Positions 36,996-54,271 of a stretch of DNA of 64,000 nt are shown here, in pieces. The translations under genes and the position numbers were made by a program. The stretch covers positions 1,088,001 through 1,152,000 of the forward strand of contig CBDFLE010000005.1 in the NCBI GenBank assembly GCA_965248925.1. The letters run 5' to 3'. This DNA comes from Candidatus Multivoradales bacterium (GTDB lineage: Bacteria > Acidobacteriota > Thermoanaerobaculia > Multivoradales > J023). The notes under the pieces were generated by a model. That model made no database searches and was not told the DNA's origin. It worked only from the letters and a program-made list of their open reading frames with translations. Each line of letters starts with the position of its first letter. Position 1 is the stretch's first letter.

Positions 36996-37370
36996 ATGGA
37001 ACAACGAATCGCGAGCTTTCGTCATCAGGTCGAGGTCTACTTTGGCTGCCGCCCAGGCCGCGGATGTCGGTATCCGGCTTCCCTTCGGGCAGAAGCCGTG
37101 GAGGTGGCTTTGGAGGCGCAGTCCAACGGCGATCGGTTGGGCCGGGTGGCCGCTGCTTTGGGAGTCGGTGTGGACACGCTCCGCCGCTGGATCGAGGCAG
37201 CGCCGCCGATGCCCATTCAGCTGCGGGCGGTCGAAGTCGTAGAGGCCGAAGAAGCAGCAACCATCAATCGAGGCCATCGAGAGGGCTTGGTCCTGGTGAC
37301 TGTCGCTGGCCACCGCGTGGTGGGGCTGGCTCTGGCCGACGTGGCATTGCTTCTGGAAGCGCTCGGATGA
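36996..37370 (+). CDS. tnpA: IS66 accessory protein TnpA
   Basis: HTH VAAALGVGVDTLRRW; AGGAGG RBS. Confidence 0.85.
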   Translation: MEQRIASFRHQVEVYFGCRPGRGCRYPASLRAEAVEVALEAQSNGDRLGRVAAALGVGVDTLRRWIEAAPPMPIQLRAVEVVEAEEAATINRGHREGLVLVTVAGHRVVGLALADVALLLEALG

Positions 37371-37741
37371 TCGGCTCGACCCGCCGGGTCAGCGTCTACG
37401 CCTTCGGTGCGCCTGCCGACCTCCGCAAGGGGCTCGACGGTCTCTCGGGTCTGGTGACCGGCGAGCTTGACCAAGACCCTCTCTCAGGCGATCTGTTCCT
37501 ATTCGTCAATCGGGCGCAAACCCTCGCGAAGGTTCTGGTCTGGGACGGTACCGGGCTCTGTGTCTACAGCAAGCGGCTCGAGCAGGGGCGGTTTGCCTGT
37601 CTGTGGCGCGAACGGGAAGAGGACCGGCTGCGGCTGACTATGAGTGAGCTGACCTTGTTCTTGGAGGGCAGCAAGCTGATCGGAAAGATGAGGCTCTCGC
37701 CGCCCCTATTTGTGAGGGAAAAGGTTGCTGACGCAGCCTGA
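37367..37741 (+). CDS. tnpB: IS66 accessory protein TnpB
   Basis: DLRKGLDGL, LFLFVNR, WDGTG, KRLEQGRF; ATGA overlap with tnpA. Confidence 0.92.
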   Translation: MIGSTRRVSVYAFGAPADLRKGLDGLSGLVTGELDQDPLSGDLFLFVNRAQTLAKVLVWDGTGLCVYSKRLEQGRFACLWREREEDRLRLTMSELTLFLEGSKLIGKMRLSPPLFVREKVADAA

Positions 37742-37760: not shown

Positions 37761-39033
37761 CACTGCTGTCCCGTTAACTTCGCAGAAAAATAGGCTCAAA
37801 CCTCCCTGGTCTTGATAGAATCAGTCATCGCTAAACGGCTGAATCAAAGGGAGATCTGAGCCTTGGCACATCATAGCACCGTCTTCGCCCAGCTACTGCA
37901 ACTGATTTCGAGACATGAATTCGAGGCCCTCGCAAAACGCCACCACGCCGGTCGCCAGTTCCGCACTGCGAGCCGCTGGTCGCAGCTGGTGGCTCTGATG
38001 ATGGCCCAGCTGTCCGGGCGTTCTAGCTTGCGCGACATCGTTGACAATCTACGAGCGCAGCGGCACAAGCTCTACCATCTCGGCTGCCGAGTCCTGTCGC
38101 GATCCAACTTGGCACGGATCAACGAAGAGAAGCCCTATCTCCTTTTTGAAGAGCTATTTGGGAGACTTCTGGGCCGTGCTCAAGCAGTGGCGCCCAAGCA
38201 TACGTTCCGGTTCAAGAACCGCTTGTTCTCGCTTGACGCCTCGGTGATAGACCTTTGTCTGTCGATATTCCCGTGGGCGAAGTTTCGTACGACCAAGGGA
38301 GCGATCAAGCTGCATGTGGGGTTGGATCACGGTGGCTACTTGCCTGCCTTCGTTGCGATCTCGGATGGAAAAACAGGTGACATCGCGGGCTGCAAGAGCC
38401 TGACGCTGCCACGAGGAAGCATCGTAGCTTGTGATCGTGGTTACAACAGCTACAGCTGGTTTCGTCAGCTGAGCGAGAAGGGTCTTTTCTTTGTGACCCG
38501 TCTGAAGCGCGGGGCCAAGTACCGCGTGACCGAACGTCGAAGAGTCAATCGTTCCAAGGGTTTGATGAGCGACCAAACGATCGAATGGACCGGTGTGAAG
38601 GCGTGTCGTGACTGCCCGATGCCTCTGCGGAGAGTAGGCTATCGCGACCCTGAGACCGGCAAGATCTACTATTTCTTGACGAACCTGTTCCGCCTGTCAC
38701 CTCAGACCATTGCCGATATCTACCACGAACGTTGGCAAATTGAACTCTTCTTCAAGTGGATCAAGCAGAATCTGAAGATCAAGACTTTCGTCGGCACCAG
38801 CCGCAACGCCGTGCTGACTCAGCTTTGGATCGCCATGTGCGTCTACCTATTGCTCGCTTTCATCAAGCACAAGCACCGTCTTTCCAGTAGTTTACGGGAG
38901 GCCTTGCGCCTCCTTCAATTGAACCTCTTTGAGCGCCGCGACCTCATGGCCCTCTTGAAACGAGAGCCGCCGCCGATCCCAGGACTAGACGAAAGACAAC
39001 TGGTAATGGTCGGAAGTTAACGGGACAGCAGTG
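37761..39033 (+). mobile_element. IS4-family element, copy 1 (1273 bp)
   Basis: 20-bp perfect IRs CACTGCTGTCCCGTTAACTT; 9-bp TSD ATAATAGAC (37752-37760, 39034-39042). Confidence 0.97.
37863..39020 (+). CDS. IS4 family DDE transposase
   Basis: SLDASVI, IKLH, DRGY, YHERWQIELFFKWIKQ (YREK motif). Confidence 0.95.
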   Translation: MAHHSTVFAQLLQLISRHEFEALAKRHHAGRQFRTASRWSQLVALMMAQLSGRSSLRDIVDNLRAQRHKLYHLGCRVLSRSNLARINEEKPYLLFEELFGRLLGRAQAVAPKHTFRFKNRLFSLDASVIDLCLSIFPWAKFRTTKGAIKLHVGLDHGGYLPAFVAISDGKTGDIAGCKSLTLPRGSIVACDRGYNSYSWFRQLSEKGLFFVTRLKRGAKYRVTERRRVNRSKGLMSDQTIEWTGVKACRDCPMPLRRVGYRDPETGKIYYFLTNLFRLSPQTIADIYHERWQIELFFKWIKQNLKIKTFVGTSRNAVLTQLWIAMCVYLLLAFIKHKHRLSSSLREALRLLQLNLFERRDLMALLKREPPPIPGLDERQLVMVGS

Positions 39034-39044
39034 ATAATAGACGC

Positions 39045-40595
39045 ATGCTTCGGATCGAGAACGAACAGCGCCCCGACGTTCTGCGTCAAATTGCGCTGCT
39101 GCTCGATCGCGAGAATCGACACCTGCACGAGCGCATCAAGAATCTGATAGTTAGCAACGCACATCTTGCAGGGGCCGGCGCTGCTACCCTGCAACTTGAG
39201 CTTGAGCAACTGCAGGAGATTCTCGCTCAACGCGAGCGTAAGATCTTCGGCCCGTCCTCGGAGAAACGCCCCAGGACGCGGACCCCAGCGTCGGAGCGTA
39301 AGCCGCAGACCGGCCACGGGCCGACTCCGCAGCCCTTGCTGCCAGTGGTCGAGAAACTCCTCGAGCTACCCATTGCAGAGCAGGTTTGCCCGACCTGCGA
39401 CGGCTCCCTTCAGCCGATGGGTGATCAGACGGAAGATTCCGACGAGATCTCCGTAGTCCGGCGACACTTCATCATGGTCAAGCACCAGCGTCAGAAGTAT
39501 CGCTGTCGCTGCAACGCGGCAGTGGTCACGGCGCCAGCGCTGCCAAAGCTGATCCCTGGAGGCCGCTACGCTCCAGAGTTCGCGGTTGAGGTGGCGATCG
39601 GTAAATACCTTGATCATCTACCTCTTGAGCGCCAGAGCCGAAGCATGGCGCGGGAAGGGCTGAACGTCAGCTCGCAGACGCTGTGGGACCAGATCGAAGC
39701 TTTGGCCAGGGTGCTGACGCCGAGCTACCTGGCTCTGCATGACAAGGTGCTCATGGCTCCGGTGGTCCACGCCGACGAGACTCACTGGCGGCTGGTGACT
39801 CGTCAAGAAAATTCCAAGTGGTGGGTGTGGAGCGTGGCCAATCGGCAGGCGGTGTTCTATCGATTGTGCGGAACTCGCTCGGAAAAATCTGCCAGGTCGA
39901 TCCTCTCTGGTTATCAGGGCATCGTGGTGTGCGACGGATACTCGGCCTACAAGGCTCTGGCCAAGAGTGAGGCCAAGAGGGACGATCAGTCGGCATCCCG
40001 CGCCGGTCCTGGATTCACACTGGCCCACTGCTGGGCACACGCACGAAGAAAATTCGCCGACGCAGAGCACAACTACCCGAAACACTGCGGTCAAGCGCTG
40101 GACATGATCAGCGATCTTTTCAAAGTGGAGCGGAAGGTACCGGCTATCCAAGTTCCGGAGCCGCAAGAGCTTCTGGATCTGCGCCTGAAGCTGCGCGCCG
40201 AGCACTCCGGGCCCATTCTCAAAAAGCTGCAAGCTTGGGCTATGGAGACCAGACCCGTAGCCCTGCCGCGCAGCGGATTGGGCAAGGCAGTCAACTACCT
40301 GCTCGGCCATTGGAAAGGGCTAACGCGTTTTCTTGAAAACCCCCTAATTCCCCTCGACAACAACCTTGCCGAGCGGGAGCTGCGAGGCGTCGTCATCGGA
40401 CGCAAGAACCACTACGGGTCGCGCTCCAAGCGGGGAACCGAGGTCGCGGCGATCCTCTACAGCCTCACCGAGAGCGCCAAGCTTGCCGGCGATGAGCCCT
40501 ACGCCTACCTGCTCAAAGCAACGCGGGCGGCTCTCGAGAATCCCGGCACTGTCACCTTGCCGGCCAGCCCCGGCGATTCACCCCCACCAAACTGA
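39045..40595 (+). CDS. tnpC: IS66 DDE transposase TnpC
   Basis: FGPSSEK, CPTC...CRC, HADET, CDGYSAY, CWAHARRKF, DNNLAERELR. Confidence 0.95.
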   Translation: MLRIENEQRPDVLRQIALLLDRENRHLHERIKNLIVSNAHLAGAGAATLQLELEQLQEILAQRERKIFGPSSEKRPRTRTPASERKPQTGHGPTPQPLLPVVEKLLELPIAEQVCPTCDGSLQPMGDQTEDSDEISVVRRHFIMVKHQRQKYRCRCNAAVVTAPALPKLIPGGRYAPEFAVEVAIGKYLDHLPLERQSRSMAREGLNVSSQTLWDQIEALARVLTPSYLALHDKVLMAPVVHADETHWRLVTRQENSKWWVWSVANRQAVFYRLCGTRSEKSARSILSGYQGIVVCDGYSAYKALAKSEAKRDDQSASRAGPGFTLAHCWAHARRKFADAEHNYPKHCGQALDMISDLFKVERKVPAIQVPEPQELLDLRLKLRAEHSGPILKKLQAWAMETRPVALPRSGLGKAVNYLLGHWKGLTRFLENPLIPLDNNLAERELRGVVIGRKNHYGSRSKRGTEVAAILYSLTESAKLAGDEPYAYLLKATRAALENPGTVTLPASPGDSPPPN

Positions 40596-40694: not shown

Positions 40695-40878
40695 TAACTC
40701 CATGAGATGCCAGTGTTTATCCCTTGAGTACCGGCGACGTGTGAAGCTTACCACGAGCACCTCCACACGCGTCAAGGGGGGCTCATGGGGAAGCACTGGC
40801 CAATCCTCCCCCACGGTCTTCAACGGTGGGCCACAACGAAACCGGCTAGTGCAGAAGTTTGCTAGGTTCCCGGCGCAT
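40695..40878. repeat. Dispersed non-coding module, copy A
   Basis: Shares CAGTGTTTA, AGCTTACC-/-GTCAAGG, TCAACGG and CGAAACCGG..AGTGCAGAAG with copies B and C. Confidence 0.8.
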
Positions 40879-40893
40879 CGAAACGCGTCAAGC

Positions 40894-40993
40894 GCTCGGC
40901 TATCGGCGGAATCTGCCGATTCCGGTGGCACCTTAATTGGCTTGCTCGGCTATCGGCGGAATCTGCCGATTCCGGTGGCACCTTAATTGGCTT
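40894..40993. repeat. Perfect 50-bp tandem duplication with internal hairpin
   Basis: GCTCGGCTATCGGCGGAATCTGCCGATTCCGGTGGCACCTTAATTGGCTT x2. Confidence 0.95.
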
Positions 40994-41037: not shown

Positions 41038-43185
41038 TCACCTATAGTCGAGTGCGCCATCGAAAACTCTTAAGTCGATGAATTCTAGGCCAGTATCATT
41101 GCTATCATAAATCTTGATATAGAGGTTGCCGTTGATCACATGGGTGATGGTGTCCGATGAAAAGACATGGAAGTCCTCGATGGCTATGCTCTTGAAAATA
41201 TCATCAACTACGGCCGAATAGAGATCGGCGGCCTTGCTCCTCTGTGTACGGTCGTCTGCAATTAGAGTATATCGGAACCCAAATCTACTTAGATGACCCT
41301 CAAGAAACTCAGCCTCAAAACCACTAGCGACTTCTATCCCTTCGACTCGAAATTGCTCCTTGCGACAGTATGTTTGGCCGCAGAGTGATATGGCTCCTTT
41401 GTCCAGGAGAGAGGCCATGTGCTCCTGATAGTCGTTCACGGACATGCCGAATTCAAGGTCTAGATGGATTTTGCTCTTGGCGACGGTCCTCGTTCTTCCT
41501 TGGTCGATTGCATGGCGAAATAGACGCTCATTGTCCTGAAACTGCACTCTTGATGAAACATCTACCGTGAAGTCATCTGGCCTGAGAGTCATAAAGAGAA
41601 CTTCCCCGTCAAGAGTTCCTTTCAGCCAGAACCTCTTGCCGTTATTCTTGAAGGGCCAGAAGCTCCTCTTGTTCTCATGAGGATAGGTTTTTATTATCGA
41701 ATATTCCCTGCCCTGTAAGTAGAGGAGAAACTCATCAAAAGACTCATGAGAAGTAGTTGAAAGTCTAATTTTTGTGTAATCCTCAAGGAGGGAAACGTCG
41801 AAGCGAAAAGAGCGACCTTCTACGCCCGAGAGCCAGACATTACCATTCGGCTTGATTGCAATGACACCATTCTGCTTTCTTACATCCCAGGAAAAGTCGT
41901 CTTCTGGGAACACCTCGTTCAGGCATCGCTCATCCTCACAATTCTTACCCTGCATCAATAGATCCAGGAGGTCATAATCGGAAACATTTGGGGGGTTCAA
42001 GGCCAAGCTCACGGAGTTGACGCGATATTCTGGACTTTCTAGCACCTCTCCGAGGTAGCGAGATTTCGACATGTAGATCATGTCTAGCTGAGCAAAAAAT
42101 ATGGTGTCGCTATCATGATCGAAGGACATCTTGAAGGTGGCATCGGCGTCAAGCTTGTATTGTGTCGGAAAGACGAACCGAGACAAGGTGCCATGAGTGG
42201 TATCCAGGATGTAGTAACTGATCCGGTTGTGTTCCAGTAGCGAATCGGCCAATTGTCGGCGCTTGATTCGAAGTATCAACTTGTCGCCCATGCATGCCAA
42301 TATGCTTGTTTCGGAGATGTCAAAGTCAGGGTCTTCGAACAAGTCAACTCTTGAGAAGTGAGCTTCGTCTCCGTTGGATTTCCACAGGAAAGGATTGCGC
42401 TTCATGGGGCTGGTGTGGTATGCCGTACCAAACATCTTACCATCGGCCACCTTGAAGACCTCGGAGAGCCTCAAGGTGTCTTCTGGTGTCGATGTCCCAC
42501 TTCTTAGTACGCTATCGTAGCGAAGGTAGTACGAGTTATTCAGGCTACTGCCCGATGGGGCATACCAATACTGCTCATTTTGATAGATCGGGGTCAAATG
42601 CTGTTTCGATTGAGCTACATCAGAATTGGAGGGGCGACGACTTGCGTCTTCAGGTGCCGGCTGTATCAGTGTCCAACTGGCGCCATTATCGAGACTGCGA
42701 TATAAATTACCACCAATGAACATCTGGATAGAACCGTCACCGCTAGTGATTTGAGTGAACTTTGCGCCATCTGAATACAATAGAGGGCTCGCCAGATTCT
42801 TTGCGGTCTTTGCCCAGCGCGCGAAGAAGAAATCCGGAACGTTGTCGAGCTTATCTCCTTTGATTAGCGCATTCTGTTCAGACATTGCCGGGGTCGAAAC
42901 CTCCTCCCAAGATAGGCCGCTATCTAGCGACCTGTACACTCGGAATGGTTTGCATCTAAAGGCTGGAAGAAGGCCGTCCGTACCGCAGTCAACATCTTCG
43001 TTGTCAAAGTACCCGATTGCGATGAGGGCTCCACTAGTTGCTCGATGTAGATTAAGGATATTTAGCGATATGGAGTCAGCGTTGCGGATTGTGCCTAGGT
43101 CGACCCAGAGAGAAGAGTCCTCTTTGACACAGCCAAGCACTAGCACCAGCAGTGTAAGAAGCACGGGGTGATGTAGTCGTTTCAT
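41038..43185 (-). CDS. Low-GC lipoprotein with BNR/Asp-box repeats
   Basis: Lipobox VLGC; YRSLDSGLSW and YRSLDNGASW. Confidence 0.7.
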   Translation of the reverse strand: MKRLHHPVLLTLLVLVLGCVKEDSSLWVDLGTIRNADSISLNILNLHRATSGALIAIGYFDNEDVDCGTDGLLPAFRCKPFRVYRSLDSGLSWEEVSTPAMSEQNALIKGDKLDNVPDFFFARWAKTAKNLASPLLYSDGAKFTQITSGDGSIQMFIGGNLYRSLDNGASWTLIQPAPEDASRRPSNSDVAQSKQHLTPIYQNEQYWYAPSGSSLNNSYYLRYDSVLRSGTSTPEDTLRLSEVFKVADGKMFGTAYHTSPMKRNPFLWKSNGDEAHFSRVDLFEDPDFDISETSILACMGDKLILRIKRRQLADSLLEHNRISYYILDTTHGTLSRFVFPTQYKLDADATFKMSFDHDSDTIFFAQLDMIYMSKSRYLGEVLESPEYRVNSVSLALNPPNVSDYDLLDLLMQGKNCEDERCLNEVFPEDDFSWDVRKQNGVIAIKPNGNVWLSGVEGRSFRFDVSLLEDYTKIRLSTTSHESFDEFLLYLQGREYSIIKTYPHENKRSFWPFKNNGKRFWLKGTLDGEVLFMTLRPDDFTVDVSSRVQFQDNERLFRHAIDQGRTRTVAKSKIHLDLEFGMSVNDYQEHMASLLDKGAISLCGQTYCRKEQFRVEGIEVASGFEAEFLEGHLSRFGFRYTLIADDRTQRSKAADLYSAVVDDIFKSIAIEDFHVFSSDTITHVINGNLYIKIYDSNDTGLEFIDLRVFDGALDYR

Positions 43186-43363
43186 GAGAGGTGAACCCTT
43201 TTCGTTGGACAGGCTATTTCCTTTGCTAAGGTGGACTCATAGTCCATCAGTTCAGGCTGCGGTATTTCCGGGTTTCTTGTGGATCCGATATTTGCGACCT
43301 CTGCGGACCTAGCCAGTCAAACTTCTCCCTAAAATCCTCTGTCTCCACCTCTTCAGAGGATAC

Positions 43364-43465
43364 ATCCGCCAAGCCTTGCTGGACGGTACCTACTCGCCGC
43401 AGCCTGTGCGGCGAGTAGAGGTCCTGAAGCCCCCGGGGCATGAGCGAGATGCTGCGTGGGATTGT
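43364..43465 (+). pseudogene. N-terminal fragment of a group II intron reverse transcriptase
   Basis: Translates IRQALLDGTYSPQPVRRVEVLKPPG, matching the Y.P.PVRRV.IPKP.G motif. Confidence 0.8.
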
Positions 43466-43511
43466 TGGTGTCTTGCCTCCGCTCTCCGAATCTTTCCCAA
43501 CAAACAAGCCA

Positions 43512-45119
43512 CTAGCCTCTCCAATCCTTGACGTAAAGAACATTAGTGTTATTCAACTGAATCACACTCTGTTTCCGCAACATCGCGGACGCCTCTTTTC
43601 CATACTTGTCAATCTCATCAATAGCGACGAAGGACTGTTTCTCAATCGATAGATAGAAACGAAAAAGGTTCGCGACGGAGTCATTCTCGACATTCTTAAA
43701 GAGAAGCGAGTCATGCGCAATGAATGGTAGAATCGTTGCCTGGAACACCGCCAAATCTAAGACGATCAGACTTGCGTATGCCGTGCCAGTCCCAGTATCT
43801 TCGAAAACCTCGTACGTATAACTATTCTCCTCGATTCCGATCTCAGGACTCTTTCGCTCAGGCCCAAAAATCAAGGTAACAATCCTGCGAAGCGTATCAT
43901 TCAATATGTTCTTGATAAGCTCGATCTCTTCGGCCTTCCTGGCAGAGAGGCTTTTCTTAAGTCCCTTGATATCTTCTCGAAGGCACTGGTTGTTCTCGAA
44001 ATGAAGATTCTCGTGTCTCGCTTCGCCTAGATCCACTGCTAGGTCATACACACGGTCTACTATGACTGTAGGCTGATCGATAGTCGATAATGTCTTGGCC
44101 ATCCGAGCTTCGATATTCGCGATCTCAGCATCGATTCGAGCCAAGTTTTCCTTCAGGTTTGCCTCAGATCCTCGAAGCTCTGTTTTCAACAGCTTCGCAA
44201 CGCCGCTATGGAACTCCTCGACTCTCGTCAAACGCCCCTTGTCAATTTCTGGAAAAAATCTGCTTAACGCAGCAAAGTGTCGACTCTTGATATGGCGATT
44301 GCCTGTGATATTCCCTTGAATTCGAGCCAATTTGCTTTCAAGATCCAGTTTAACAGAAAGCAGTTTATCCTTATGAAGCTTCAACTCTAATACTTCACGG
44401 TTGACTACTTCCGAGATATTAGTCGCGTACTTTGCCAGGTTAACTTTAATGTCATCGATTTCAGTCTCAATCGCAGCAATCCGACTTTCATTGGCTTTGG
44501 CTTTCCGCTTGTCGATTTTCGGAATAATCTGAGTCTTGAACGCGGCGTTCAGCGCCTTCCGCTCTTCTTCTCTAACTTTGAGGCTATTGGCAAGTTTCTT
44601 GATGGGTCCAAATCGATCAAATGTCTTAATCAAGTTGTCGACGCACTCTCGACCAGGCTTGACTTGCACCACATGAAGAGGTTTTTGCACGCTTAGGTTG
44701 TCTTTGCCCCACACCCTGAAGTACAAACCAACCAAAGACCGAAAACTTATTTCCTCAAGCTGGATTCCGTAGGCTGCCTTAAGAATGGCTGTGTATTCTT
44801 CAATAGGGATCGGCGTCGTTGGCTGATAATCTTCGCTGCACTTATATACCAAATCGGGCTGAAACGTCCCTCGCCGAAAGCGCATAAGTTCCCGGTTGAA
44901 CGTGAAGGAGAAGAAATAGTCGTGGTCCCCCAGCTCGGCGACCAGATCAATATTATGCTTTAGTAATGAATTGCCGCCAAAGGCGAAGTCGATGACCATC
45001 AGGAGGGTCGACTTGCCTATGGAGTTCGTACCGTTCTCATCTCCAAGCACTACATTCAGGCCAGGGCGAAAAGGGATCCGGTCGGTGCGAAATTTGTCGC
45101 AACGAACTTCAGTCAACAT
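43512..45119 (-). CDS. ABC/SMC-like ATPase of a Lamassu / ABC-three-component system (DUF2326-type, LmuB-like)
   Basis: GLNVVLG..NSIGKST, central coiled coil, DTGTGTAY, IAHDS. Confidence 0.88.
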   Translation of the reverse strand: MLTEVRCDKFRTDRIPFRPGLNVVLGDENGTNSIGKSTLLMVIDFAFGGNSLLKHNIDLVAELGDHDYFFSFTFNRELMRFRRGTFQPDLVYKCSEDYQPTTPIPIEEYTAILKAAYGIQLEEISFRSLVGLYFRVWGKDNLSVQKPLHVVQVKPGRECVDNLIKTFDRFGPIKKLANSLKVREEERKALNAAFKTQIIPKIDKRKAKANESRIAAIETEIDDIKVNLAKYATNISEVVNREVLELKLHKDKLLSVKLDLESKLARIQGNITGNRHIKSRHFAALSRFFPEIDKGRLTRVEEFHSGVAKLLKTELRGSEANLKENLARIDAEIANIEARMAKTLSTIDQPTVIVDRVYDLAVDLGEARHENLHFENNQCLREDIKGLKKSLSARKAEEIELIKNILNDTLRRIVTLIFGPERKSPEIGIEENSYTYEVFEDTGTGTAYASLIVLDLAVFQATILPFIAHDSLLFKNVENDSVANLFRFYLSIEKQSFVAIDEIDKYGKEASAMLRKQSVIQLNNTNVLYVKDWRG

Positions 45120-45333
45120 AGGAAATGATCCGGGTGTCGAAATCTATTTCGATACATCCCAAGAGGTAGAGCACATCGATCGCCAGGAGAAATTGATCAA
45201 CGCTTTCCAACTTCTTGGCGGTTTTATTGTACAGTTTTATAAGGTCGATTGAGCCCGGTCGCTGCTCAAGGATGAGACCTACAGCGCCTAAAGCAGAGTC
45301 CTTCAGCGCCACCATCTTGTTCGGTGTGATCAT
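45109..45333 (-). CDS. ABC-3C middle component (LmuC-like)
   Basis: 74 aa, MITPNK...LAIDVLYLLGCI; overlaps both neighbours. Confidence 0.8.
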   Translation of the reverse strand: MITPNKMVALKDSALGAVGLILEQRPGSIDLIKLYNKTAKKLESVDQFLLAIDVLYLLGCIEIDFDTRIISYVD

Positions 45334-45587
45334 TCGAATACCTCGCAGTTTTGAACGAAGAATGACGTCACGATCTCGGCCGCTTCTAGGGTATCTGGCT
45401 CAGTTTTGATGTACAACCAGTCGACGATGTTCGAAAAGACCTCGTGCTGTGGTAATCCAAGACTCTTCTGTTTAAGATAATAAACTTTCACCTGTGTCGC
45501 GATTAGGTCGGACACTGCAGGGCTCAAGCGCTCCATCTCCAGGAACTTACTCCGGATATATTGATAATAATCAGCAACATTATACTT

Positions 45588-46860
45588 CACTGCTGTCCCG
45601 TTAACTTCGCAGAAAAATAGGCTCAAACCTCCCTGGTCTTGATAGAATCAGTCATCGCTAAACGGCTGAATCAAAGGGAGATCTGAGCCTTGGCACATCA
45701 TAGCACCGTCTTCGCCCAGCTACTGCAACTGATTTCGAGACATGAATTCGAGGCCCTCGCAAAACGCCACCACGCCGGTCGCCAGTTCCGCACTGCGAGC
45801 CGCTGGTCGCAGCTGGTGGCTCTGATGATGGCCCAGCTGTCCGGGCGTTCTAGCTTGCGCGACATCGTTGACAATCTACGAGCGCAGCGGCACAAGCTCT
45901 ACCATCTCGGCTGCCGAGTCCTGTCGCGATCTAACTTGGCACGGATCAACGAAGAGAAGCCCTATCTCCTTTTTGAAGAGCTATTTGGGAGACTTCTGGG
46001 GCATGCTCAGGCAGTGGCGCCCAAGCATACGTTCCGGTTCAAGAACCGCTTGTTCTCGCTTGACGCCTCGGTGATAGACCTCTGTCTGTCGATATTCCCA
46101 TGGGCGAAGTTTCGTACGACCAAGGGAGCGATCAAGCTGCATGTGGGGTTGGATCACGGTGGCTACTTGCCTGCCTTCGTTGCGATCTCGGATGGAAAAA
46201 CAGGTGACATCGCGGGCTGCAAGAGCCTGACGCTGCCACGAGGAAGCATCGTAGCTTGTGATCGTGGTTACAACAGCTACAGCTGGTTTCGTCAGCTGAG
46301 CGAGAAGGGTCTTTTCTTTGTGACCCGTCTGAAGCGCGGGGCCAAGTACCGCGTGACCGAACGTCGAAGAGTCAATCGTTCCAAGGGTTTGATGAGCGAC
46401 CAAACGATCGAATGGACCGGTGTGAAGGCGTGTCGTGACTGCCCGATGCCTCTGCGGAGAGTAGGCTATCGCGACCCTGAGACCGGCAAGATCTACTATT
46501 TCTTGACGAACCTGTTCCGCCTGTCACCTCAGACCATTGCCGATATCTACCACGAACGTTGGCAAATTGAACTCTTCTTCAAGTGGATCAAGCAGAATCT
46601 GAAGATCAAGACTTTCGTCGGCACCAGCCGCAACGCCGTGCTGACTCAGCTTTGGATCGCCATGTGCGTCTACCTATTGCTCGCTTTCATCAAGCACAAG
46701 CACCGTCTTTCCAGTAGTTTACGGGAGGCCTTGCGCCTCCTTCAATTGAACCTCTTTGAGCGCCGCGACCTCATGGCCCTCTTGAAACGAGAGCCGCCGC
46801 CGATCCCAGGACTAGACGAAAGACAACTGGTAATCGTCGGAAGTTAACGGGACAGCAGTG
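45588..46860 (+). mobile_element. IS4-family element, copy 2 (1273 bp)
   Basis: Same IRs as copy 1; 9-bp TSD ATTATACTT (45579-45587, 46861-46869). Confidence 0.97.
45690..46847 (+). CDS. IS4 family DDE transposase
   Basis: Near-identical to 37863-39020 (R/H and M/I differences). Confidence 0.95.
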   Translation: MAHHSTVFAQLLQLISRHEFEALAKRHHAGRQFRTASRWSQLVALMMAQLSGRSSLRDIVDNLRAQRHKLYHLGCRVLSRSNLARINEEKPYLLFEELFGRLLGHAQAVAPKHTFRFKNRLFSLDASVIDLCLSIFPWAKFRTTKGAIKLHVGLDHGGYLPAFVAISDGKTGDIAGCKSLTLPRGSIVACDRGYNSYSWFRQLSEKGLFFVTRLKRGAKYRVTERRRVNRSKGLMSDQTIEWTGVKACRDCPMPLRRVGYRDPETGKIYYFLTNLFRLSPQTIADIYHERWQIELFFKWIKQNLKIKTFVGTSRNAVLTQLWIAMCVYLLLAFIKHKHRLSSSLREALRLLQLNLFERRDLMALLKREPPPIPGLDERQLVIVGS

Positions 46861-47381
46861 ATTATACTTGATCTTTCTTTGAGTTGGAATCGGCATCGAT
46901 TCGTCCAATTTTGCTTCTAGACTTCTTGGGTCATACTCAAGATCTGGCTCATCGGGATAGTCCGCGACTGTGTAGAGCCCCTCAATAACAACCCGGATGT
47001 CTCTCTCGATCTTGTAGGAAGATTGAAGTGTTTGCTGCTCCTCCTGTCGAAGCAGGGATCGTTTTTTCCGCACGAGCGCCCTGTACTCGTCAGCGATTCT
47101 TGGCTTGTCAAATTTCTTATGGCATGTCGCACACAATGGAATCAAGTTGTTTGGATGATTCACGTCAGCGTGCAGCTTTACCTCATTTCTCAGCTCATAC
47201 AGTTCGCTTTTACTTGGGTTGACGGGATAGATGTGGGCTAGGTCGTACATCTTATATGACCTTAAGTTCTTGACGTAGAAGAGATCACGTCCACACAGCG
47301 GGCAAATGCCTCTAGTTTGCGTGGTTAATGCCAACTCTTCGGCAGGGCTGTATTTCCGGCGATCATTTGTCATAGGATTTC

Positions 47382-47783
47382 CGAGGTTGGATGAACTACT
47401 TCGGCATTTCGGACTATTACCGACCTGTCGCAGAAATCGACAAGTGGATCCGAAGACTCATCTGAATGTGTTACTGGAAACAGTGGCGCTGGGTGCGCAC
47501 GAAGGTCCGTCATCTGCTCGCTTTGGGAACGAGTCGTCGTCAAGCAATTTTCACCGCGCTCAGTCGCAAGAGCTACTGGGACTTGTCGAAAACCTTGGCG
47601 ACACAGACCGGAATGACGAACAAATTGCTTCAAAGTCAGGGGCTGATCAGTTTCCGCGATCTGTGGATGAAAGCCCATGGCTATGCTTGAAACGATCGTG
47701 TGCTCCATCATTGTGAATCGCCTAGTGCGGACCCGTATGCTAGGTGGCGTGTTGGCCGGGGTTAGATCCCCCGGCTACCCGAT
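47382..47783 (+). mobile_element. 3' part of a group IIC intron: maturase domain X remnant plus ribozyme domains V and VI
   Basis: RGWMNYF...WIRRLI*MCYWKQWR; DV GAATCGCCTAGTGCGGACCCGTATGCTAGGTGG (from 47715); DVI ending CCCGAT. Confidence 0.88.
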
Positions 47784-49120
47784 TAGCCGTCTGCACCGGT
47801 TTGCCTAACTGCATTCCGGATGGGTGCCGGAATTGCGTTGTCGTATAGTCGGTCATCTCCGACTGACATGCCTTGTTCTAGGATGAAGTCTGCCAGAATC
47901 ATCGCCTCATCGTCGTCCACTTCGCCAGACTCTAGGATTCCAAGCAGGGAACTCTGCGCCCCCCATTGATCTGCGCCGTACGCCACTGACCACATTCCAA
48001 CAAGGCAACCGCCTCGACTCTCGGTATCGACGACAGCGTGGAACAGTCGGCCTAAGAAGCTAGCAAATCCATTCATTGCGCTGAAGGGCCATCCCACAGT
48101 TCCGAGGCACTTCTCCATTTCATCCAAGAAGACACGCACGAACCTCGCAGACTCTGCTCCTACTGCATCGCAATAGGGCGCGAGCCGATCATCGGAAGAA
48201 AAGAAGTCAATTACTGGCTCTATGTAACCGCTGTAGACGTGATCTCTATACTCGGGCTCTGCGAGTGCTCTGTGCACCTGATCCCAGTGAGGTGCCGATC
48301 CATTGTCGGCTAACAGCACCTTTAGCGCGTCATTGCGAGGCGGCGTATCGGTTCGTAATGCCTCGATTCGATCAAAGTGCTCGGCAAAGTGAGCCGCAGA
48401 TGGATAGCGCTCAGTAGCGCTTGGCCGAGTAGCCCTTTGAATTACAGGAGAGTACGAACAACGATGGTGGTGATCTGGGTCTCTGCCGGTCATGACAAAG
48501 TTGAGCAGCTTCCCTAGCGAGTAGATGTCACTCTGAACCGTAGCACTTTTGAGGCTGTCCCGCTGCTCGGGCGCAACGTAGTACGCATGGCCGTAGTTGT
48601 CGACACTGCTCCGCGTGCGGTTCGACTGAGCACTGAGGTCCCTGCCCAGGCCAAAATCGCACACGACCACAGAATTGCAGTCGCGAGTGTCCAGGACTAA
48701 TGCATTGGATGGACTGATATCCCTATGCAGGATGCCGAGCTCGTGCGCCGACTGGATTGCACTCAGAATTCGGCGGAACATTACGACGCGCTCCGGTTCC
48801 TCCAGTGCAGTGTTGTTCCTCTTAATGAACCGATGAAGATTCATAGCTGCCACAGGCATGGCGTACCAGATGCCAGGCCCAACCAAGTTTCCCGAGTGGC
48901 CTAGGAGATCAACTACGCCCGCCACGCCCCTAAGACGTTCAAGCAGTGTGATTTCCCGCTTGAGCCGTGCTTGATAGACAGGATTGTTGTTGACTGAACT
49001 CCTTAAGCTCTTCACAGCAATGCCGTCGCCAGTCTTACGGTGACTGAATCTCTTTACGAGCGCGAATGCACCCTCGCCCATGACAGCGGTAGTTTCGTAA
49101 TCGCGAAGCTCAATACTCAT
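47783..49120 (-). CDS. Cytoplasmic Ser/Thr protein kinase carried as an integron-type gene cassette
   Basis: GEGAFALV, AVK, HRDISPSN, DFGLG, YVAPE, DIYSLG; begins after GTTAGCC and ends in GGCTAA. Confidence 0.9.
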   Translation of the reverse strand: MSIELRDYETTAVMGEGAFALVKRFSHRKTGDGIAVKSLRSSVNNNPVYQARLKREITLLERLRGVAGVVDLLGHSGNLVGPGIWYAMPVAAMNLHRFIKRNNTALEEPERVVMFRRILSAIQSAHELGILHRDISPSNALVLDTRDCNSVVVCDFGLGRDLSAQSNRTRSSVDNYGHAYYVAPEQRDSLKSATVQSDIYSLGKLLNFVMTGRDPDHHHRCSYSPVIQRATRPSATERYPSAAHFAEHFDRIEALRTDTPPRNDALKVLLADNGSAPHWDQVHRALAEPEYRDHVYSGYIEPVIDFFSSDDRLAPYCDAVGAESARFVRVFLDEMEKCLGTVGWPFSAMNGFASFLGRLFHAVVDTESRGGCLVGMWSVAYGADQWGAQSSLLGILESGEVDDDEAMILADFILEQGMSVGDDRLYDNAIPAPIRNAVRQTGADG

Positions 49121-49129
49121 TGCGAATCC

Positions 49130-49220
49130 GGCTAACAATAAAGGTTCTATCTGAACTCCAAGCCAAGATCTCCCATCGTGCGGACGCGCCTCCCCGAGTT
49201 CAGATGGAAGCGAGTTGTAC
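49130..49220 (-). other. attC-like integron recombination site
   Basis: Minus strand: GTACAAC - TTCCATCTGAACTC - loop - GAGTTCAGATAGAA - GTTAGCC. Confidence 0.7.
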
Positions 49221-49347
49221 GAAGCCGCCGCCTGGCACGGACGTTGCGTTTAGGGGTTTGTATCCCTCAGCCGGGGACGAGCCCCGAGCCATCGTGGCAG
49301 TCGAAGGCAGGTGAGATCGCGGCATAAGTAGGGGGGGATTAGAGCGC

Positions 49348-49557
49348 CTCAGAGGTCGAAAAATTCCGCCGATTTCTTCCCCGCACACGCTCTGTAAGTG
49401 CTTGACCGGTCAGTGTTTAATCCCGTCGTGCCCATAATGGAGACAGCTTACCATGCGGGGGCACTGCGATGTCAAGGGCACTGTGGGGGCAGCACTCTGC
49501 CCCGCTGCCCCGTGCTTCTCAACGGCTGACCGCACGAAACCGGTTAGTGCAGAAGGT
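49348..49557. repeat. Dispersed non-coding module, copy B (cut on the right by IS21)
   Basis: Collinear with 53994-54221. Confidence 0.85.
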
Positions 49558-49710
49558 TGTGTCAGTGACCGCCCATATGGAGCCAAAGCGGGATCGCCGT
49601 AATGGCGCCAGTAGAAGATCGCCGTAATGGAGCTAGTAGCTGCTCTGTTCGAGGATCTCGGGCCTCTCCCGGGGATACCTTACTGCCAGTCGAAATGGCA
49701 GGAGGTGTCC

Positions 49711-51243
49711 GTGGGGAATCGGAGGTTCGAGATGTACGAGTACCGTCATGTGCTGGTCCGAATGCGGGCTGGCGACTCAGATAGAGAATTGGCTCGTGCG
49801 GGCCTGATGGGGCGTCGCAAGTCTGGTGAATTTCGTCGTTTGGTGACGGAATTGGGCTGGCTGAAGCCGTCGCGGCCGTTGCCCGAGGTGGCGACGTTGG
49901 CGGCGCAAGCGGTCCCGAAACGACCGAAACAGTCGTCGACATCGTTGGTAGAGCCACACGCTGAGATGGTTCGTCAGTGGGCGTCCCAGGGCGTTGACGG
50001 GACGACAATCCACCAGGCGCTGGTGCGCAAGTTCGATTTCCCAGGCAGCTACTCGTCGGTGCGGCGCTATCTGCGCCGGCTGGGCAGGTCGCAGCCTCGG
50101 CGCACGGTGATCCTGGACTTTGCACCCGGCGAGGCAGCGCAGGTGGATTTCGGCTCGGGGCCGCGGCTGGTCGAGGGCGGCAGTGAGATCCGCACGTGGT
50201 TCTTCGTGATGACGCTGTGCTGGAGTCGGCACCAGTAGGCGGAGCTGGTTCTCGACCAGAAGGTGGCGACGTGGCTGGCCTGCCATCGCCGAGCCTTCGA
50301 GTTCTTCGGCGGGGTGCCCCTGCGGGTGACCATCGACAACGCCAAATGTGCGATCACGCGAGCCTGCTGGCGAGATCCGGAGGTGCAACGATCCTACGCC
50401 GAGCTCGCCGAAGGCTACGGCTTCAAGATCGACCCGTGCCCACCTCGGGATCCCCAGAAGAAGGGGCGAGTGGAGTCGGGTATCAAGTACGTGAAGCGGA
50501 ACTTCCTGCCTCTGCGGGAGTTCCGAAACCTGAGCGATGGCAATGGTCAGCTCGAAGCCTGGGTGCTCGGCCGGGCAGGCAATCGGATCCACGGCTCGAC
50601 CCGTGAGCGGCCCCTGACGCGCTTTGCCGAGACCGAGCGTGATCTGCTCCAGACCTTGCCGGCTGCCGCCCCGGAGCCTTCGACCTGGGCCCGTGCGATC
50701 GTGCCTGCAGATCACCATGTGCGCCTTGAGCATGGCCGCTACTCAGTGCCCTACACACTGATCGGTGAGCGGTTGTGGCTGCGGGCAACACCGACCGCGG
50801 TTCAGGTCTACGAGGAGTACACGATGGTGGCGGCGCACCCGCGCATGAGACCTGGAAAGCGCTCGACGGTCGATGACCACCTACCGCCGGAAGCTCTGGC
50901 GCACAAACGGCGGACACCGGATTGGTGCCGCTCGCAGGCCGAGTCGATTGGCCCTTCCTGCCAGGGGCTGATCGACGCCCTATTCGCCGACCGCGTGCTG
51001 GACAACCTGCGGGCTGCGCAAGGTGTCATCCGGCTCGCAGAGCGCTACGGAGAGGACCGATTGGAGGCCGCTTGCGAGCGGGCGCTGGCCTTCGAGAATC
51101 CGCGCTATCGGTGCGTCAAGACGATCCTCGAGCGGGGGCTCGACCAGCACTGCGTCGAGCCCCCGGAGTCCGTCCAGCTTGCCGCGAGTTACACCGGCTC
51201 GGGCCGCTTCTGCCGTGACACCCGAAATCTGTTGGCGCACTGA
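49711..51243 (+). pseudogene. istA: IS21 transposase with in-frame TAG at 50236-50238
   Basis: PGEAAQVDFG, WSRHQ*AE, DNAK, KGRVESGIKYVK all in one frame. Confidence 0.9.
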
Positions 51244-51256
51244 TGTGGAGGCCCCA

Positions 51257-52060
51257 ATGAATCCTGTACCCGAGATCGCCCCGCTGCTCAAGCGACTCCG
51301 TCTGTCGGGAATCCTCGAGAGCCTCGAGGAGCGCAATCGTCAGGCGATCACCAAGAAGCTCCCGTACACCGACTTCCTCACCCTGCTCATCCAAGACGAA
51401 GTAGCGCGGCGCGACCAGAAGAAATTCGACCTGCGCCTGAGGCGTGCGGGTTTCCAGTCGAACAAGACGATCGAGAGCTTCGACTTCGACTTCAATCCGA
51501 GCGTCCACCGCGAGCTGCTCCAAGAGCTTGCGGCCTGCCGTTTCCTCGACGAGCACGTCTGCGTGCTGATCGCCGGACCGTGCGGGACCGGCAAGAGCCA
51601 CATCGCCCAGGCGCTGGGTCACTGCGCCGTACGCGCTGGCCACGACGTGCTCTTCACCACCACGAGCAAGCTCCTCGGCTCGCTCAACGCGGCGCGCGCC
51701 ACGGGCACCTTCGAGCGTCGCTTCCAGGCCGTCGCTCGCGTCGACCTGCTGATCCTCGACGACTTCGGCCTCAAGCCCTTACGGGCACCGCAGGACGAGG
51801 ATCTCCACGATCTGGTCGCAGAGCGTTACGAGCGCACCTCGACCGTCGTCACCAGCAACCTCGATTTCACCGAGTGGGGCGACGCCTTCACTAACCGCCT
51901 GCTAGGCGCCGCCACACTCGACCGTCTGCGAGACGCCGCATACCGCGTCGTTCTCGACGGCGAGAGCTACCGAAAACCCAGGCCCATGCCGAAAGCCAGA
52001 AAGGTCGCCGAGGCCGCAAGCAAGGACCAGAAGACGAAGAAGGGAGGCCACACGGCTTGA
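51257..52060 (+). CDS. istB: IS21 helper AAA+ ATPase
   Basis: GPCGTGKSH, LLILDDFG, VTSNL, LDRL. Confidence 0.95.
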   Translation: MNPVPEIAPLLKRLRLSGILESLEERNRQAITKKLPYTDFLTLLIQDEVARRDQKKFDLRLRRAGFQSNKTIESFDFDFNPSVHRELLQELAACRFLDEHVCVLIAGPCGTGKSHIAQALGHCAVRAGHDVLFTTTSKLLGSLNAARATGTFERRFQAVARVDLLILDDFGLKPLRAPQDEDLHDLVAERYERTSTVVTSNLDFTEWGDAFTNRLLGAATLDRLRDAAYRVVLDGESYRKPRPMPKARKVAEAASKDQKTKKGGHTA

Positions 52061-52742: not shown

Positions 52743-53801
52743 CTAGGCTGCAAGGAAGTTCGCAGTCATGCGAGCGACTACGCTGGCGGTATGGCCGTCT
52801 GTCAGGTGGGCGTAGCGCTTGACCATGGCCAGCGTCTTGTGGCCCATAGCCTCGGCGAGTTCGGCCAACGTCGCGCCGCTCATCGCGAGGTAGCTGGCAA
52901 ATGTGTGGCGAAGATCATGGAACCGGAAATTTTTGAGGCCAGCTGCCTCACAAGTCCGCTGCCATTCGCCCTGGGGGAAGGACGTTGAGCCGGTACGGCT
53001 GGGAAAGACGAGATCGGTTCCGAGGCGTCGGGCGGTCTTCCACTGTGACAGTACCTCTTCGGCTAGCCCGCTGATGGTCAGTGAGCGGCGCTCGCCGTTC
53101 TTGGTGTGGTGGATGAGTGCCACTCCGCGATTAAAATCCACATCCCTCCATTTGAGGTTCAACAGCTCGCCGCGCCGTGCTCCGGTGCAAAGGGCCATCG
53201 CCACCAGCGGATAGAGACGGGGCTCGGTGCTGTCCTTACAGGCGGCAAGTAGCCGGCGCTTTTCGTCTTCGTCGAGGAAGCGAGCACGGCCACGTCCTTG
53301 AGCGGGTTTGACGACTCTCAGACAGGGGTTGTCGTCCATCCAGAACCATTCCTTGACACCAGCGCTGAACGCTCCGCTCAAGATGGTGAGGTAGCGATGC
53401 ACGGTACCCGCCGCTAGTTGCTTGCCAGAGATCCCCTTGCCGCTGGTCAGGCCGTCTCTTGCCTCGGCGATGATGGCGGGGGTGACCTGGCTGAGCCGTG
53501 TATTTTCTCCCAGCGCCTGGCACCACCACCGAAGATTACGGGCGGTGTCCTTGGCTCGTGCCAGCCGGGGGACTTTCACTTCGATGTAGCGATCGATAAG
53601 ATCGCCCACGGTGTGCTGTTCGGCTTCGGCTTCCGGCTGATAGCGGCGTTGCCGTATCGCCTCAGTCGTACTATCGCCCCATCGTTGGGCTTCGCGCCGC
53701 GTGGAAAAAGTCTCTGAAGCCCGAGGATGCCCCTTCAAGAAAATCTGTGCCCGATACCGGATCTTGCCCTTCGCCGTCGTACGCTTTTCGATGTGTGCCA
53801 T
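52743..53801 (-). CDS. Phage/ICE-type tyrosine integrase
   Basis: Arm-binding N-terminus, TGARRGEL, TKNG, FHDLRHT, MGH, RYAH. Confidence 0.95.
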   Translation of the reverse strand: MAHIEKRTTAKGKIRYRAQIFLKGHPRASETFSTRREAQRWGDSTTEAIRQRRYQPEAEAEQHTVGDLIDRYIEVKVPRLARAKDTARNLRWWCQALGENTRLSQVTPAIIAEARDGLTSGKGISGKQLAAGTVHRYLTILSGAFSAGVKEWFWMDDNPCLRVVKPAQGRGRARFLDEDEKRRLLAACKDSTEPRLYPLVAMALCTGARRGELLNLKWRDVDFNRGVALIHHTKNGERRSLTISGLAEEVLSQWKTARRLGTDLVFPSRTGSTSFPQGEWQRTCEAAGLKNFRFHDLRHTFASYLAMSGATLAELAEAMGHKTLAMVKRYAHLTDGHTASVVARMTANFLAA

Positions 53802-53934
53802 GAGTTCCTCCAAACAGGTCGTCCCCGTGGGACGGATTTCTGTGGGGTACTCAAGGGGAAGCACTGGCCAACAACGCCCCACTGCATACAAAACGTCGCG
53901 AGACGTAAGTTATTGCATTTGCAGTGGTTAAGCA

Positions 53935-53943: not shown

Positions 53944-53993
53944 GTTGTCGAGTATTGGGTTATCTCACTTTGAAAAGGAGAGAATCACCGGGT

Positions 53994-54221
53994 CTCAGAG
54001 CCCAAAAATCCCGTCGATTTCTTCCAAGCGCACACTCTGTAAGTGCTGGACCAGTCAGTGTTTAATCCCGTCGTACCCATGATGAGAGTAGCTTGCCACT
54101 TCGCGTCTTCTGGGTGTCAAGGGGCACTGGCGGCGCAGCACTCTGCCCTGTTGCCCCATGGTTCTCAACGGCGGGCCACACGAAACCGGTTGATGCAGAA
54201 GTCTGCCAGCTTCCGGCGCAT
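53994..54221. repeat. Dispersed non-coding module, copy C
   Basis: Collinear with copies A and B. Confidence 0.85.
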
Positions 54222-54271
54222 GTCGGCAGCGTGGACCGTATGTCCAGGTTTGTTAGGATGTCCAACATGGG

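Follow-up and report, generated by a model that had tools for sequence, protein, structure and literature searches.

A stretch of 64,000 nucleotides from Candidatus Multivoradales bacterium, a member of the Acidobacteriota (contig CBDFLE010000005.1 of assembly GCA_965248925.1, positions 1,088,001 to 1,152,000; hereafter the window, whose first letter is position 1), carries on its minus strand a three-gene ABC-3C defence operon that is flanked by two plus-strand remnants of a group II intron. An initial annotation of this locus proposed that the operon sits inside a hollowed-out intron, the shell of which acted as a capture site or vehicle for defence cargo. Our analysis leaves little doubt that both remnants are dead and serve as no vehicle. 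The locus consists of an inactivated ABC-3C system amid decayed mobile elements, a landscape of an ordinary kind. With regard to its history, we tentatively prefer, at a confidence somewhat short of even, an order in which the gene array was in place first and intron copies inserted into it later and then decayed. We infer this order of events, with the array first and two insertions, as well as the mechanism of truncation; directly demonstrated are the identity of each part (Table 1), the collinearity with a single intron family, the loss of the ribozyme, the IS (insertion sequence) in the effector gene, the foreign composition that the genes have in common and the insertion habit of the family.

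In the history that we prefer, a co-directional minus-strand array consisting of a kinase gene, the ABC-3C operon and a gene for a 715-aa protein would have been acquired horizontally, in an island rich in integrases and insertion sequences (IS). Copies of one group IIC intron family, which inserts on the opposite strand directly behind stop codons, would then have entered this array, one in the spacer that follows the kinase gene and another past the ATPase gene. Of these, the right copy, 5′-truncated either at insertion or later, now constitutes the full 410-nt spacer between the kinase and the HNH effector gene, and the left copy would have been worn down to 75 nt. Later, an active IS4-family element of the present host split the effector gene.

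Table 1. Features of the locus, with positions in the window
Feature	Position	Strand	Details
Left intron relic, scrap of a group IIC intron reverse transcriptase (RT)	43363-43437	+	75 nt, perhaps to ~43450; blastn/tblastn
Right intron relic	47374-47783	+	~410 nt; RT residues ~348-451 (maturase domain X), then degenerate domains V and VI (DV/DVI)
Effector gene, N-terminal part (HNH_2 and start of CTD11)	46861-47373	-	~168-171 codons; cut by IS
Effector gene, C-terminal part (CTD11)	45330-45587	-	Pfam CTD11 1.3e-20
Middle component MC7	45109-45333	-	74 aa; Pfam MC7 4.8e-15, 55.8 bits (cut-off 27)
ABC ATPase gene	43512-45119	-	535 aa, DUF2326 C-terminus, apparently intact; Pfam DUF2326 1.9e-15, above cut-off
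IS4-family element	45588-46860	+	1273 bp; transposase ORF (open reading frame) 45690-46847; perfect 21-bp inverted repeats; NF033592 287.6 bits
Ser/Thr kinase gene	47783-49138	-	451 aa, Stk2-like, full length; Pfam Pkinase; PADLOC Stk2 4.5e-45
Predicted lipoprotein gene	41038-43185	-	715 aa; no match in Pfam, PADLOC, NCBIfam
Stem-loop	43334-43361		8-bp stem, 12-nt loop; ends 1 nt before the left relic; TTTT after it on the - strand

Both remnants derive from one group IIC intron family

Both remnants are collinear with one intact intron in the related genome G017 (locus L020), lie on the same strand and keep the order of 5′ piece and 3′ piece (blastn/tblastn), which agrees with the strand, order and common origin deduced in the initial annotation; they are relics of one family and not of unrelated introns. 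The left relic corresponds to intron nt 715-789 in the numbering of the G017 intron, that is, to RT residues 80-104 with the motif IRQALLDGTYSPQPVRRVE. It is 82.7% identical to L020 4247-4321 on the DNA level (blastn) and 88% identical to the G017 RT on the amino acid level (tblastn; E 2e-8 with the window as target and 3e-6 with all 8 Mb of the genome), with its residues 1-19 being identical to the G017 RT. The RT fragment that had been annotated at 43364-43465 is hence real, albeit smaller than described. Its GC content amounts to 68%, compared to 49-54% in its flanks, in which alignment revealed intron-like sequence on neither side. When 43186-43362 and 43438-43514 were aligned locally to five intron references, the scores did not exceed those of shuffles (p 0.17-0.98), and more intron remains in these two segments were rejected; a likeness of the gap at 43438-43514 to DV that is apparent by eye is ascribed to chance for the same reason. 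No closer relative of the left relic was detected in 24 genomes of the family, and short matches at loci L025, L075 and L076, which are without an RT, were discarded as relatives. RTs are held by 34 of 401 genomes of the class sample, a tally that takes in one unpublished genome (G221), on which nothing else in this analysis depends, and all of them show at most 51% identity.

The right relic covers intron nt 1518 to the end, its last letters ...CTACCCGAT falling at 47783. The maturase X and DV/DVI end had previously been placed at 47382-47783, which is confirmed at a slightly greater length. Positions 47374-47742 are 93.2% identical over 369 nt to the intact G017 intron (L020 5050-5418), and 47383-47789 are 86.6% identical to the relic in genome G010 (both blastn). 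The Pfam model GIIM matches 47376-47687 at E 1.4e-9 with the in-frame stop read as X; this stop is a TGA at 47463-47465 in domain X, and the ORF stops at 47688-47690. The TGA is common to the window relic and the G010 relic (L021), G017 has CGT at this place, and base 47463 is a C in relatives from three other sequencing runs. Despite the TGA that it has in common with G010, the window relic is closer overall to G017; the TGA in both relics could go back to a C-to-T change that occurred in parallel or to the spread of a dead sub-lineage. The DV/DVI part at ~47703-47783 aligns base for base with the DV/DVI of G010, which reaches 44.9 bits in Rfam. The window DV keeps a compensatory pair, and the basal DVI helix is damaged, with TT in the window and GG in G010. 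A search with covariance models for group II introns of the Infernal type, as had been suggested, gave no Rfam match for the window DV/DVI, be it at the gathering score in the whole window, at E<=10 on 9 kb or at E<=10 on 201 nt. Weak matches to YrlB, sRNA-Xcc1 and similar families (E 0.5-6) were dismissed as chance matches to the DVI hairpin.

Relative to the G017 intron, ~714 nt of 5′ ribozyme and the 728 nt of RT core between the relics are absent. Neither Rfam nor blastn/tblastn with the G017 intron revealed intron sequence 5′ of nt 715 in the window, so that the 5′ splice site is missing together with domains DI-DIII and DIVa; the Rfam group-II-D1D4 models found no match in the window, and the intron 5′ end, which had escaped the initial annotation, is not there to be located. 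The RT motifs 0-7 are not complete, only residues 80-104 and ~348-451 of 451 being present. The G017 intron, by comparison, is intact. It is ~1927 nt (~1.93 kb) long, with its 5′ splice site at L020 3533 as placed by alignment with G010, and matches the Rfam models group-II-D1D4-3 at 130 bits and D1D4-1 at 69 bits. It encodes an endonuclease-less (En-less) RT of 451 aa (TIGR04416 at 377 bits), the closest PDB match of which is the GsI-IIC RT (6AR1, E 6.6e-130). Judged on the sequence of this intact relative, the family is group IIC. The G017 5′ exon carries strong hairpins and a T run, which start ~90 nt and end ~40 nt upstream of the 5′ splice site (z -3.0).

When domain X was used as a query, matches were obtained in 9 of 61 related genomes, and the best of these, 91% identical, lies in an open 489-aa frame of G017. 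Relics with a common 3′ end and varied 5′ ends are frequent in the relatives, with 33 matches in G002 alone. The inspected copies of G001, G021 and G002 are 3′ fragments, and the G010 copy is internally deleted, 67 nt of its 5′ region being joined directly to RT residue 229. The organism's own 8-Mb genome holds no further pieces of this intron family beyond the two relics; the three intact group II RTs encoded in it are of a different lineage (31% identity).

These findings bear directly on the proposal that the locus is a hollowed-out intron, still mobile or mobilisable in trans, that carries the operon as cargo. Solely the collinear order of the relics speaks in its favour. The ribozyme with its 5′ end and the RT core are gone, DV/DVI stay below every Rfam threshold, domain X contains a stop, the cargo is antisense and 3.9 kb long, and the genes next to the shell have the same composition as those inside it (see below). 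Furthermore, the unit is single-copy in the genome and was not found in 60 relatives, and none of the related intron copies in G017, G010, G001, G021 and the inspected G002 loci contains inserted genes, which also means that no instance of the same flanks enclosing different cargo was encountered among them. We consider such an element hardly credible, and neither a capture site nor a vehicle is borne out. In literature searches, no listed title or abstract reported a group II intron that carries a defence operon; if the intron had carried one, a new type of vehicle for immune genes would have come to light, and the evidence says that it did not.

The relics occupy two spacers of a foreign gene array

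Five genes lie on the minus strand across 41.0-49.1 kb, namely those for the kinase, the effector, MC7, the ATPase and the 715-aa protein. Their GC content at third codon positions (GC3) is 0.53-0.63 over the kinase (both halves), HNH, CTD11, MC7, ATPase and 715-aa gene, the kinase by itself having 0.58, the operon genes 0.54-0.61 and the 715-aa gene 0.55. In comparison, native genes have a GC3 of 0.72-0.74 and IS and integrase genes of 0.68-0.72, at a genome GC of 62.4%. Owing to this common low GC3, the genes on either side of each relic are of one foreign composition. The ATPase was found in 1 of 61 genomes and the 715-aa gene in 1 of 41, in both cases only the organism's own, and the same applies to the C-terminal domain of the kinase (1 of 41 and 1 of 401, with none in 400 others of the phylum). 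Since the GC3 is common to these genes and they were not found in relatives, the relics lie in two spacers of one foreign array, and since the genes outside the supposed intron shell have the GC3 of the operon, we argue that the array was there first.

The whole 410-nt spacer between the kinase and HNH genes is intron sequence. At its right end, the TAA stop of the kinase gene (47785-47783) overlaps the last base of the relic by one base; at its left end, the gap between the HNH ATG (47373) and the relic, initially given as 8 nt, is in fact 0 nt (+/-2). If the relic is taken out, the stop of the kinase gene overlaps the start of the HNH gene, with TA joined to ATG, and the other junctions within the operon overlap too. 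On the level of sequence, the right relic fits a 5′-truncated intron copy between two coupled genes. Promoter and terminator scans of 43100-49400 yielded no site within the relics and, overall, a lower number than shuffles did. The hairpin at 43334-43361, next to the left relic, is possibly the operon terminator and possibly also an IIC-type target hairpin. It is weak (DNA fold z -2.0; 10/200 shuffles fold equally well) and falls outside the list of the terminator scan, which allows loops of up to 8 nt compared to the 12 nt of this hairpin.

The placement of the relics follows a habit of the intron family. In 8 of 10 other relics, the stop codon of an opposite-strand open frame at least 100 codons long lies no more than 34 nt from the intron 3′ end; this count leaves out the window's own case and one duplicate locus, and the G002 copies in it may be interdependent. 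At control positions in the same loci such a stop occurs in 7.2% (676/9410; binomial 3e-8). The loci with a stop 0-34 nt from the 3′ end are L011, L021, L030, L031, L033, L036, L037 and L041, and two of the adjoining frames have Pfam support, encoding AbiTii (L041) and a trypsin-like protein (L011). All ten relic ends, like that in the window, read ...GAT and are followed by T. Hence, the strand and place of the window relics are explained by a family that inserts antisense at stop codons.

One intron copy or two

The two relics differ in their third-position divergence from G017, which is 9/24 for the left and 9/104-105 for the right relic (Fisher 0.001). The codon changes relative to G017 are mostly synonymous in the left relic (9 to 3) and mostly non-synonymous in the right one (7 to 11). 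The unequal silent divergence hints at two source copies, and two separate relics flanking the operon, which the initial annotation had mentioned as its alternative, fit the data at least as well as one. Third-position divergence between G017 and G010 is, however, itself very uneven along the ORF (2-14 per 24 codons), and the left/right comparison is for this reason only suggestive.

Further points weigh against an array that was in place before two intron copies entered it. The relics are 3.9 kb apart, collinear on one strand and the only pieces of the family in 8 Mb, and one ancestral copy is the simplest account of such a pair. The left relic has neither a 3′ end nor intron-like flanks, so that one additional deletion, if not more, has to be assumed for it. 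No hairpin is present in the 5′ flank of the right relic (z -0.23), and the flanks of the relics show no likeness to the 5′ exons of G017 and G010, ranking 9012 (right) and 48075 (left) among 127958 positions; the 20 nt that directly precede the two introns in G017 and G010 agree with each other at 15 of 20. Moreover, a kinase gene lies upstream of the operon in none of the seven homologous ABC-3C loci (L023, L040-L043, L077, L078), at which only 557 nt (L040) and 292 nt (L043) of upstream sequence are visible in two cases. A tight kinase-HNH junction that existed beforehand is therefore an assumption.

The arrangement could alternatively stem from a single IIC intron, probably already 5′-truncated at nt 715, that lay between the kinase stop and the 43334-43361 hairpin before the operon came. 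The operon together with 60-74 nt of 3′ flank would have replaced the 728 nt of RT core by illegitimate recombination, with the intron as a passive landing place. Such a course would require fewer events than two insertions plus several deletions, and it would account for relics that correspond to nt 715-789 and 1518 to the end of one intron on the same strand and have no further family members in the genome. The outer edges also resemble insertion junctions, the 3′ end lying at the kinase stop and the left edge 1 nt past a hairpin with TTTT on the minus strand, and kinase and ABC-3C occur as separate modules elsewhere. However, the incoming DNA must then have broken exactly at the A of the HNH ATG, brought no promoter and matched the orientation of its neighbours. 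No transposon ends, target duplication or recombinase belonging to the operon itself were found. The foreign GC3 of the operon is the same as that of the kinase and the 715-aa gene outside the supposed intron, the silent divergence of the relics from G017 differs ~four-fold and no other copy of the family has an insert. We regard this single-intron origin as a possible but rather unlikely course of events and retain our tentative preference for the array-first order.

Among the seven homologous ABC-3C loci, one (L041, from a metagenome) has an intron relic next to the operon, on one side only. It is a DV/DVI relic of the same family at L041 4419-4485, which is placed antisense, 10 nt past the AbiTii gene downstream of the ATPase gene; it is ~82-88% identical, carries a compensatory change in DVI and receives no score from Rfam. 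The ABC-3C islet of L041 lies between serS and housekeeping genes, with the relic at the islet edge. One could imagine from this that the operon once lay between two full-length, directly oriented intron copies that served as portable homology, that recombination moves or captures the operon as a cassette, and that the scraps in the window are leftovers. By analogy with the part proposed for IIC-attC introns in integron cassette formation, IIC introns of this family might help defence operons such as ABC-3C to move between islands, in which case the L041 relic would be no coincidence. The window relics do flank the operon in direct orientation, and passages of one article relate a proposal by Leon-Roy that IIC-attC introns join genes and attC sites in cassette formation (PMC3001079). 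Against this stand the single, one-sided case among seven loci and the fact that neither a hybrid or recombinant intron nor a circular form was seen, the contigs of the source sample showing only the present arrangement. In addition, the integrase nearby reaches just 43.7 bits on the integron-integrase model, compared to a cut-off of 265. Leftovers of such a cassette strike us as improbable, and a general role of these introns in the movement of ABC-3C operons is in our opinion no easier to credit.

An IS4-family element splits the effector gene

The operon consists of an HNH_2 and CTD11 effector, the middle component MC7 and an ABC ATPase with DUF2326 (Pfam), as the initial annotation had recognized without mention of the IS. 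This layout is identical in all seven homologous loci. The effector is not present as one intact gene but is split by the IS after about codon 168-171. Its N-terminal part matches Pfam HNH_2 at 1.9e-8 and PADLOC PDC-M68A over positions 4-119 of the profile, its C-terminal part can be aligned with residues 176-260 of the homologue in L023, which is intact, and the two halves are collinear with intact homologues. The ATG of MC7 overlaps the effector stop (ATGA), and the homologous loci have the same layout at this junction.

Homologues of the ATPase are 535-547 aa long and 45-51% identical. Its best PADLOC family is PDC-M68B, which matches the N-terminus only, and the LmuB profiles likewise cover only the ATPase N-terminus, residues ~8-94 (first 40-80 residues), with a best E of 8.5e-10. 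A run of PADLOC over the operon, as had been recommended, hence delivers the families PDC-M68A and PDC-M68B but no full-length LmuB match. The combined name Lamassu/ABC-3C is nevertheless acceptable because ABC-3C is counted within the Lamassu superfamily in the pertinent passages of a review (PMC10586767). For this ABC-3C subtype, the PADLOC candidate PDC-M68, literature searches turned up no experimental test.

The IS is bordered by a 9-bp target duplication, ATTATACTT, at 45579-45587 and 46861-46869. Elsewhere in the genome it is present in 11 full-length copies and one interrupted copy. Six full-length copies are 100% identical, which indicates that the insertion in the effector gene is recent. 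Since the IS splits the effector gene, the ABC-3C system is probably inactive. A second copy of the same element is situated at 37761-39033 (99.4% identical); it adjoins an IS66 element with a TnpB-like ORF at 37064-37741 and a transposase at 39045-40595.

Surroundings of the array

The kinase is full length when compared to two homologues (P0002 and P0003). Its C-terminal domain of ~225 aa is rare, with two relatives besides its own at E<=0.001 in 5.8 billion proteins; kinases of Bacillus plasmids match this domain at 24-31%. The N-terminus of the 715-aa protein resembles a lipoprotein signal (…LVLGC), and two stretches of the form S-x-D-x-G-x-x-W in its sequence are putative Asp-box (BNR) repeats. 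Viral contigs contain no relative of the kinase or the ATPase. The whole stretch is present only in runs of one sample, and no RNA data set was listed as containing it. In contigs of three other runs, relatives are confined to the IS and the 3′ part of the intron. A junction that lacks the IS or lacks the relic was not encountered, a result that says nothing about the absence of such a form.

The region of 37-54 kb is dense in mobile elements. A direct repeat of ~230 nt occurs at 49330-49555, at 53968-54223 and, in degenerate form, at 40710-40860, as well as elsewhere in the genome at C6:5021149-5021405 (82-91% alike). An IS21 element and a tyrosine recombinase gene (52743-53891) lie between two of the copies, and the foreign array is enclosed by the outer pair. 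In G017, a partial copy is found at L020 3150-3280, ~250 nt upstream of the intact intron. The repeat, which has no Rfam match and no tRNA nearby, possibly marks the attachment sites of stacked islands. Between its degenerate copy and the end of the 715-aa gene lies an exact tandem duplication of a 50-nt unit (40893-40992). The istA gene of the IS21 element is present as two consecutive ORFs (49627-50238 and 50263-51243) and followed by an istB-like ORF (51023-52060), and the split suggests a frameshift or stop in this IS21 copy. The tyrosine recombinase is the enzyme that scores 43.7 bits on the integron-integrase model TIGR02249.

Comparison with known elements

Remnants of mobile introns have been described before, such as FRE652, an RmInt1-like intron remnant of Sinorhizobium that, according to passages of the report, keeps DI-DIII and part of DIV (PMC5894124). 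As far as these passages go, the window pieces, which are 83-93% identical to the intact relative, resemble FRE652-like remnants as dead pieces of mobile introns that persist in intergenic accessory DNA. In contrast to FRE652, the window relics have no 5′ ribozyme and retain only the 75-nt RT scrap and the 3′ end (X, DV, DVI). The second comparison concerns IIC-attC introns, which sit antisense between co-directional cassettes, as is stated for S.ma.I2 in parts of the article cited above (PMC3001079). The present family agrees with that partial description of IIC and IIC-attC introns in an RT nearest to the GsI-IIC RT, a length of ~1.93 kb and an antisense position directly behind genes and between co-directional genes. 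Unlike at IIC-attC introns, no integron integrase above the cut-off (TIGR02249) lies near the window relics, where attC sites were not searched for, and the locus does not qualify as an integron cassette array by its integrase. An outward promoter in DI/DII is impossible in the window because DI/DII are missing.

With ABC-3C/Lamassu systems, the locus shares the order of an effector (HNH and CTD11), MC7 and ABC ATPase as well as overlapping junctions. It differs from them in the effector split by an IS and in LmuB matches confined to the ATPase N-terminus.

Non-LTR (long terminal repeat) retroelements leave 5′-truncated copies through abortive target-primed reverse transcription. The G002 relics with their constant 3′ and variable 5′ ends resemble such copies, and so does the right relic, which meets the gene start with no spare bases. 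Truncation at insertion is, however, what we infer here, and a later deletion would look alike.

For the annotation of relics of this IIC family, a 3′ end that lies against the stop of a convergent gene offers an aid. As the kinase-HNH spacer consists of intron sequence only, the order of events is decidable from one comparative locus. The locus is a resolved example of a foreign defence islet worn down by the mobile elements of its host.

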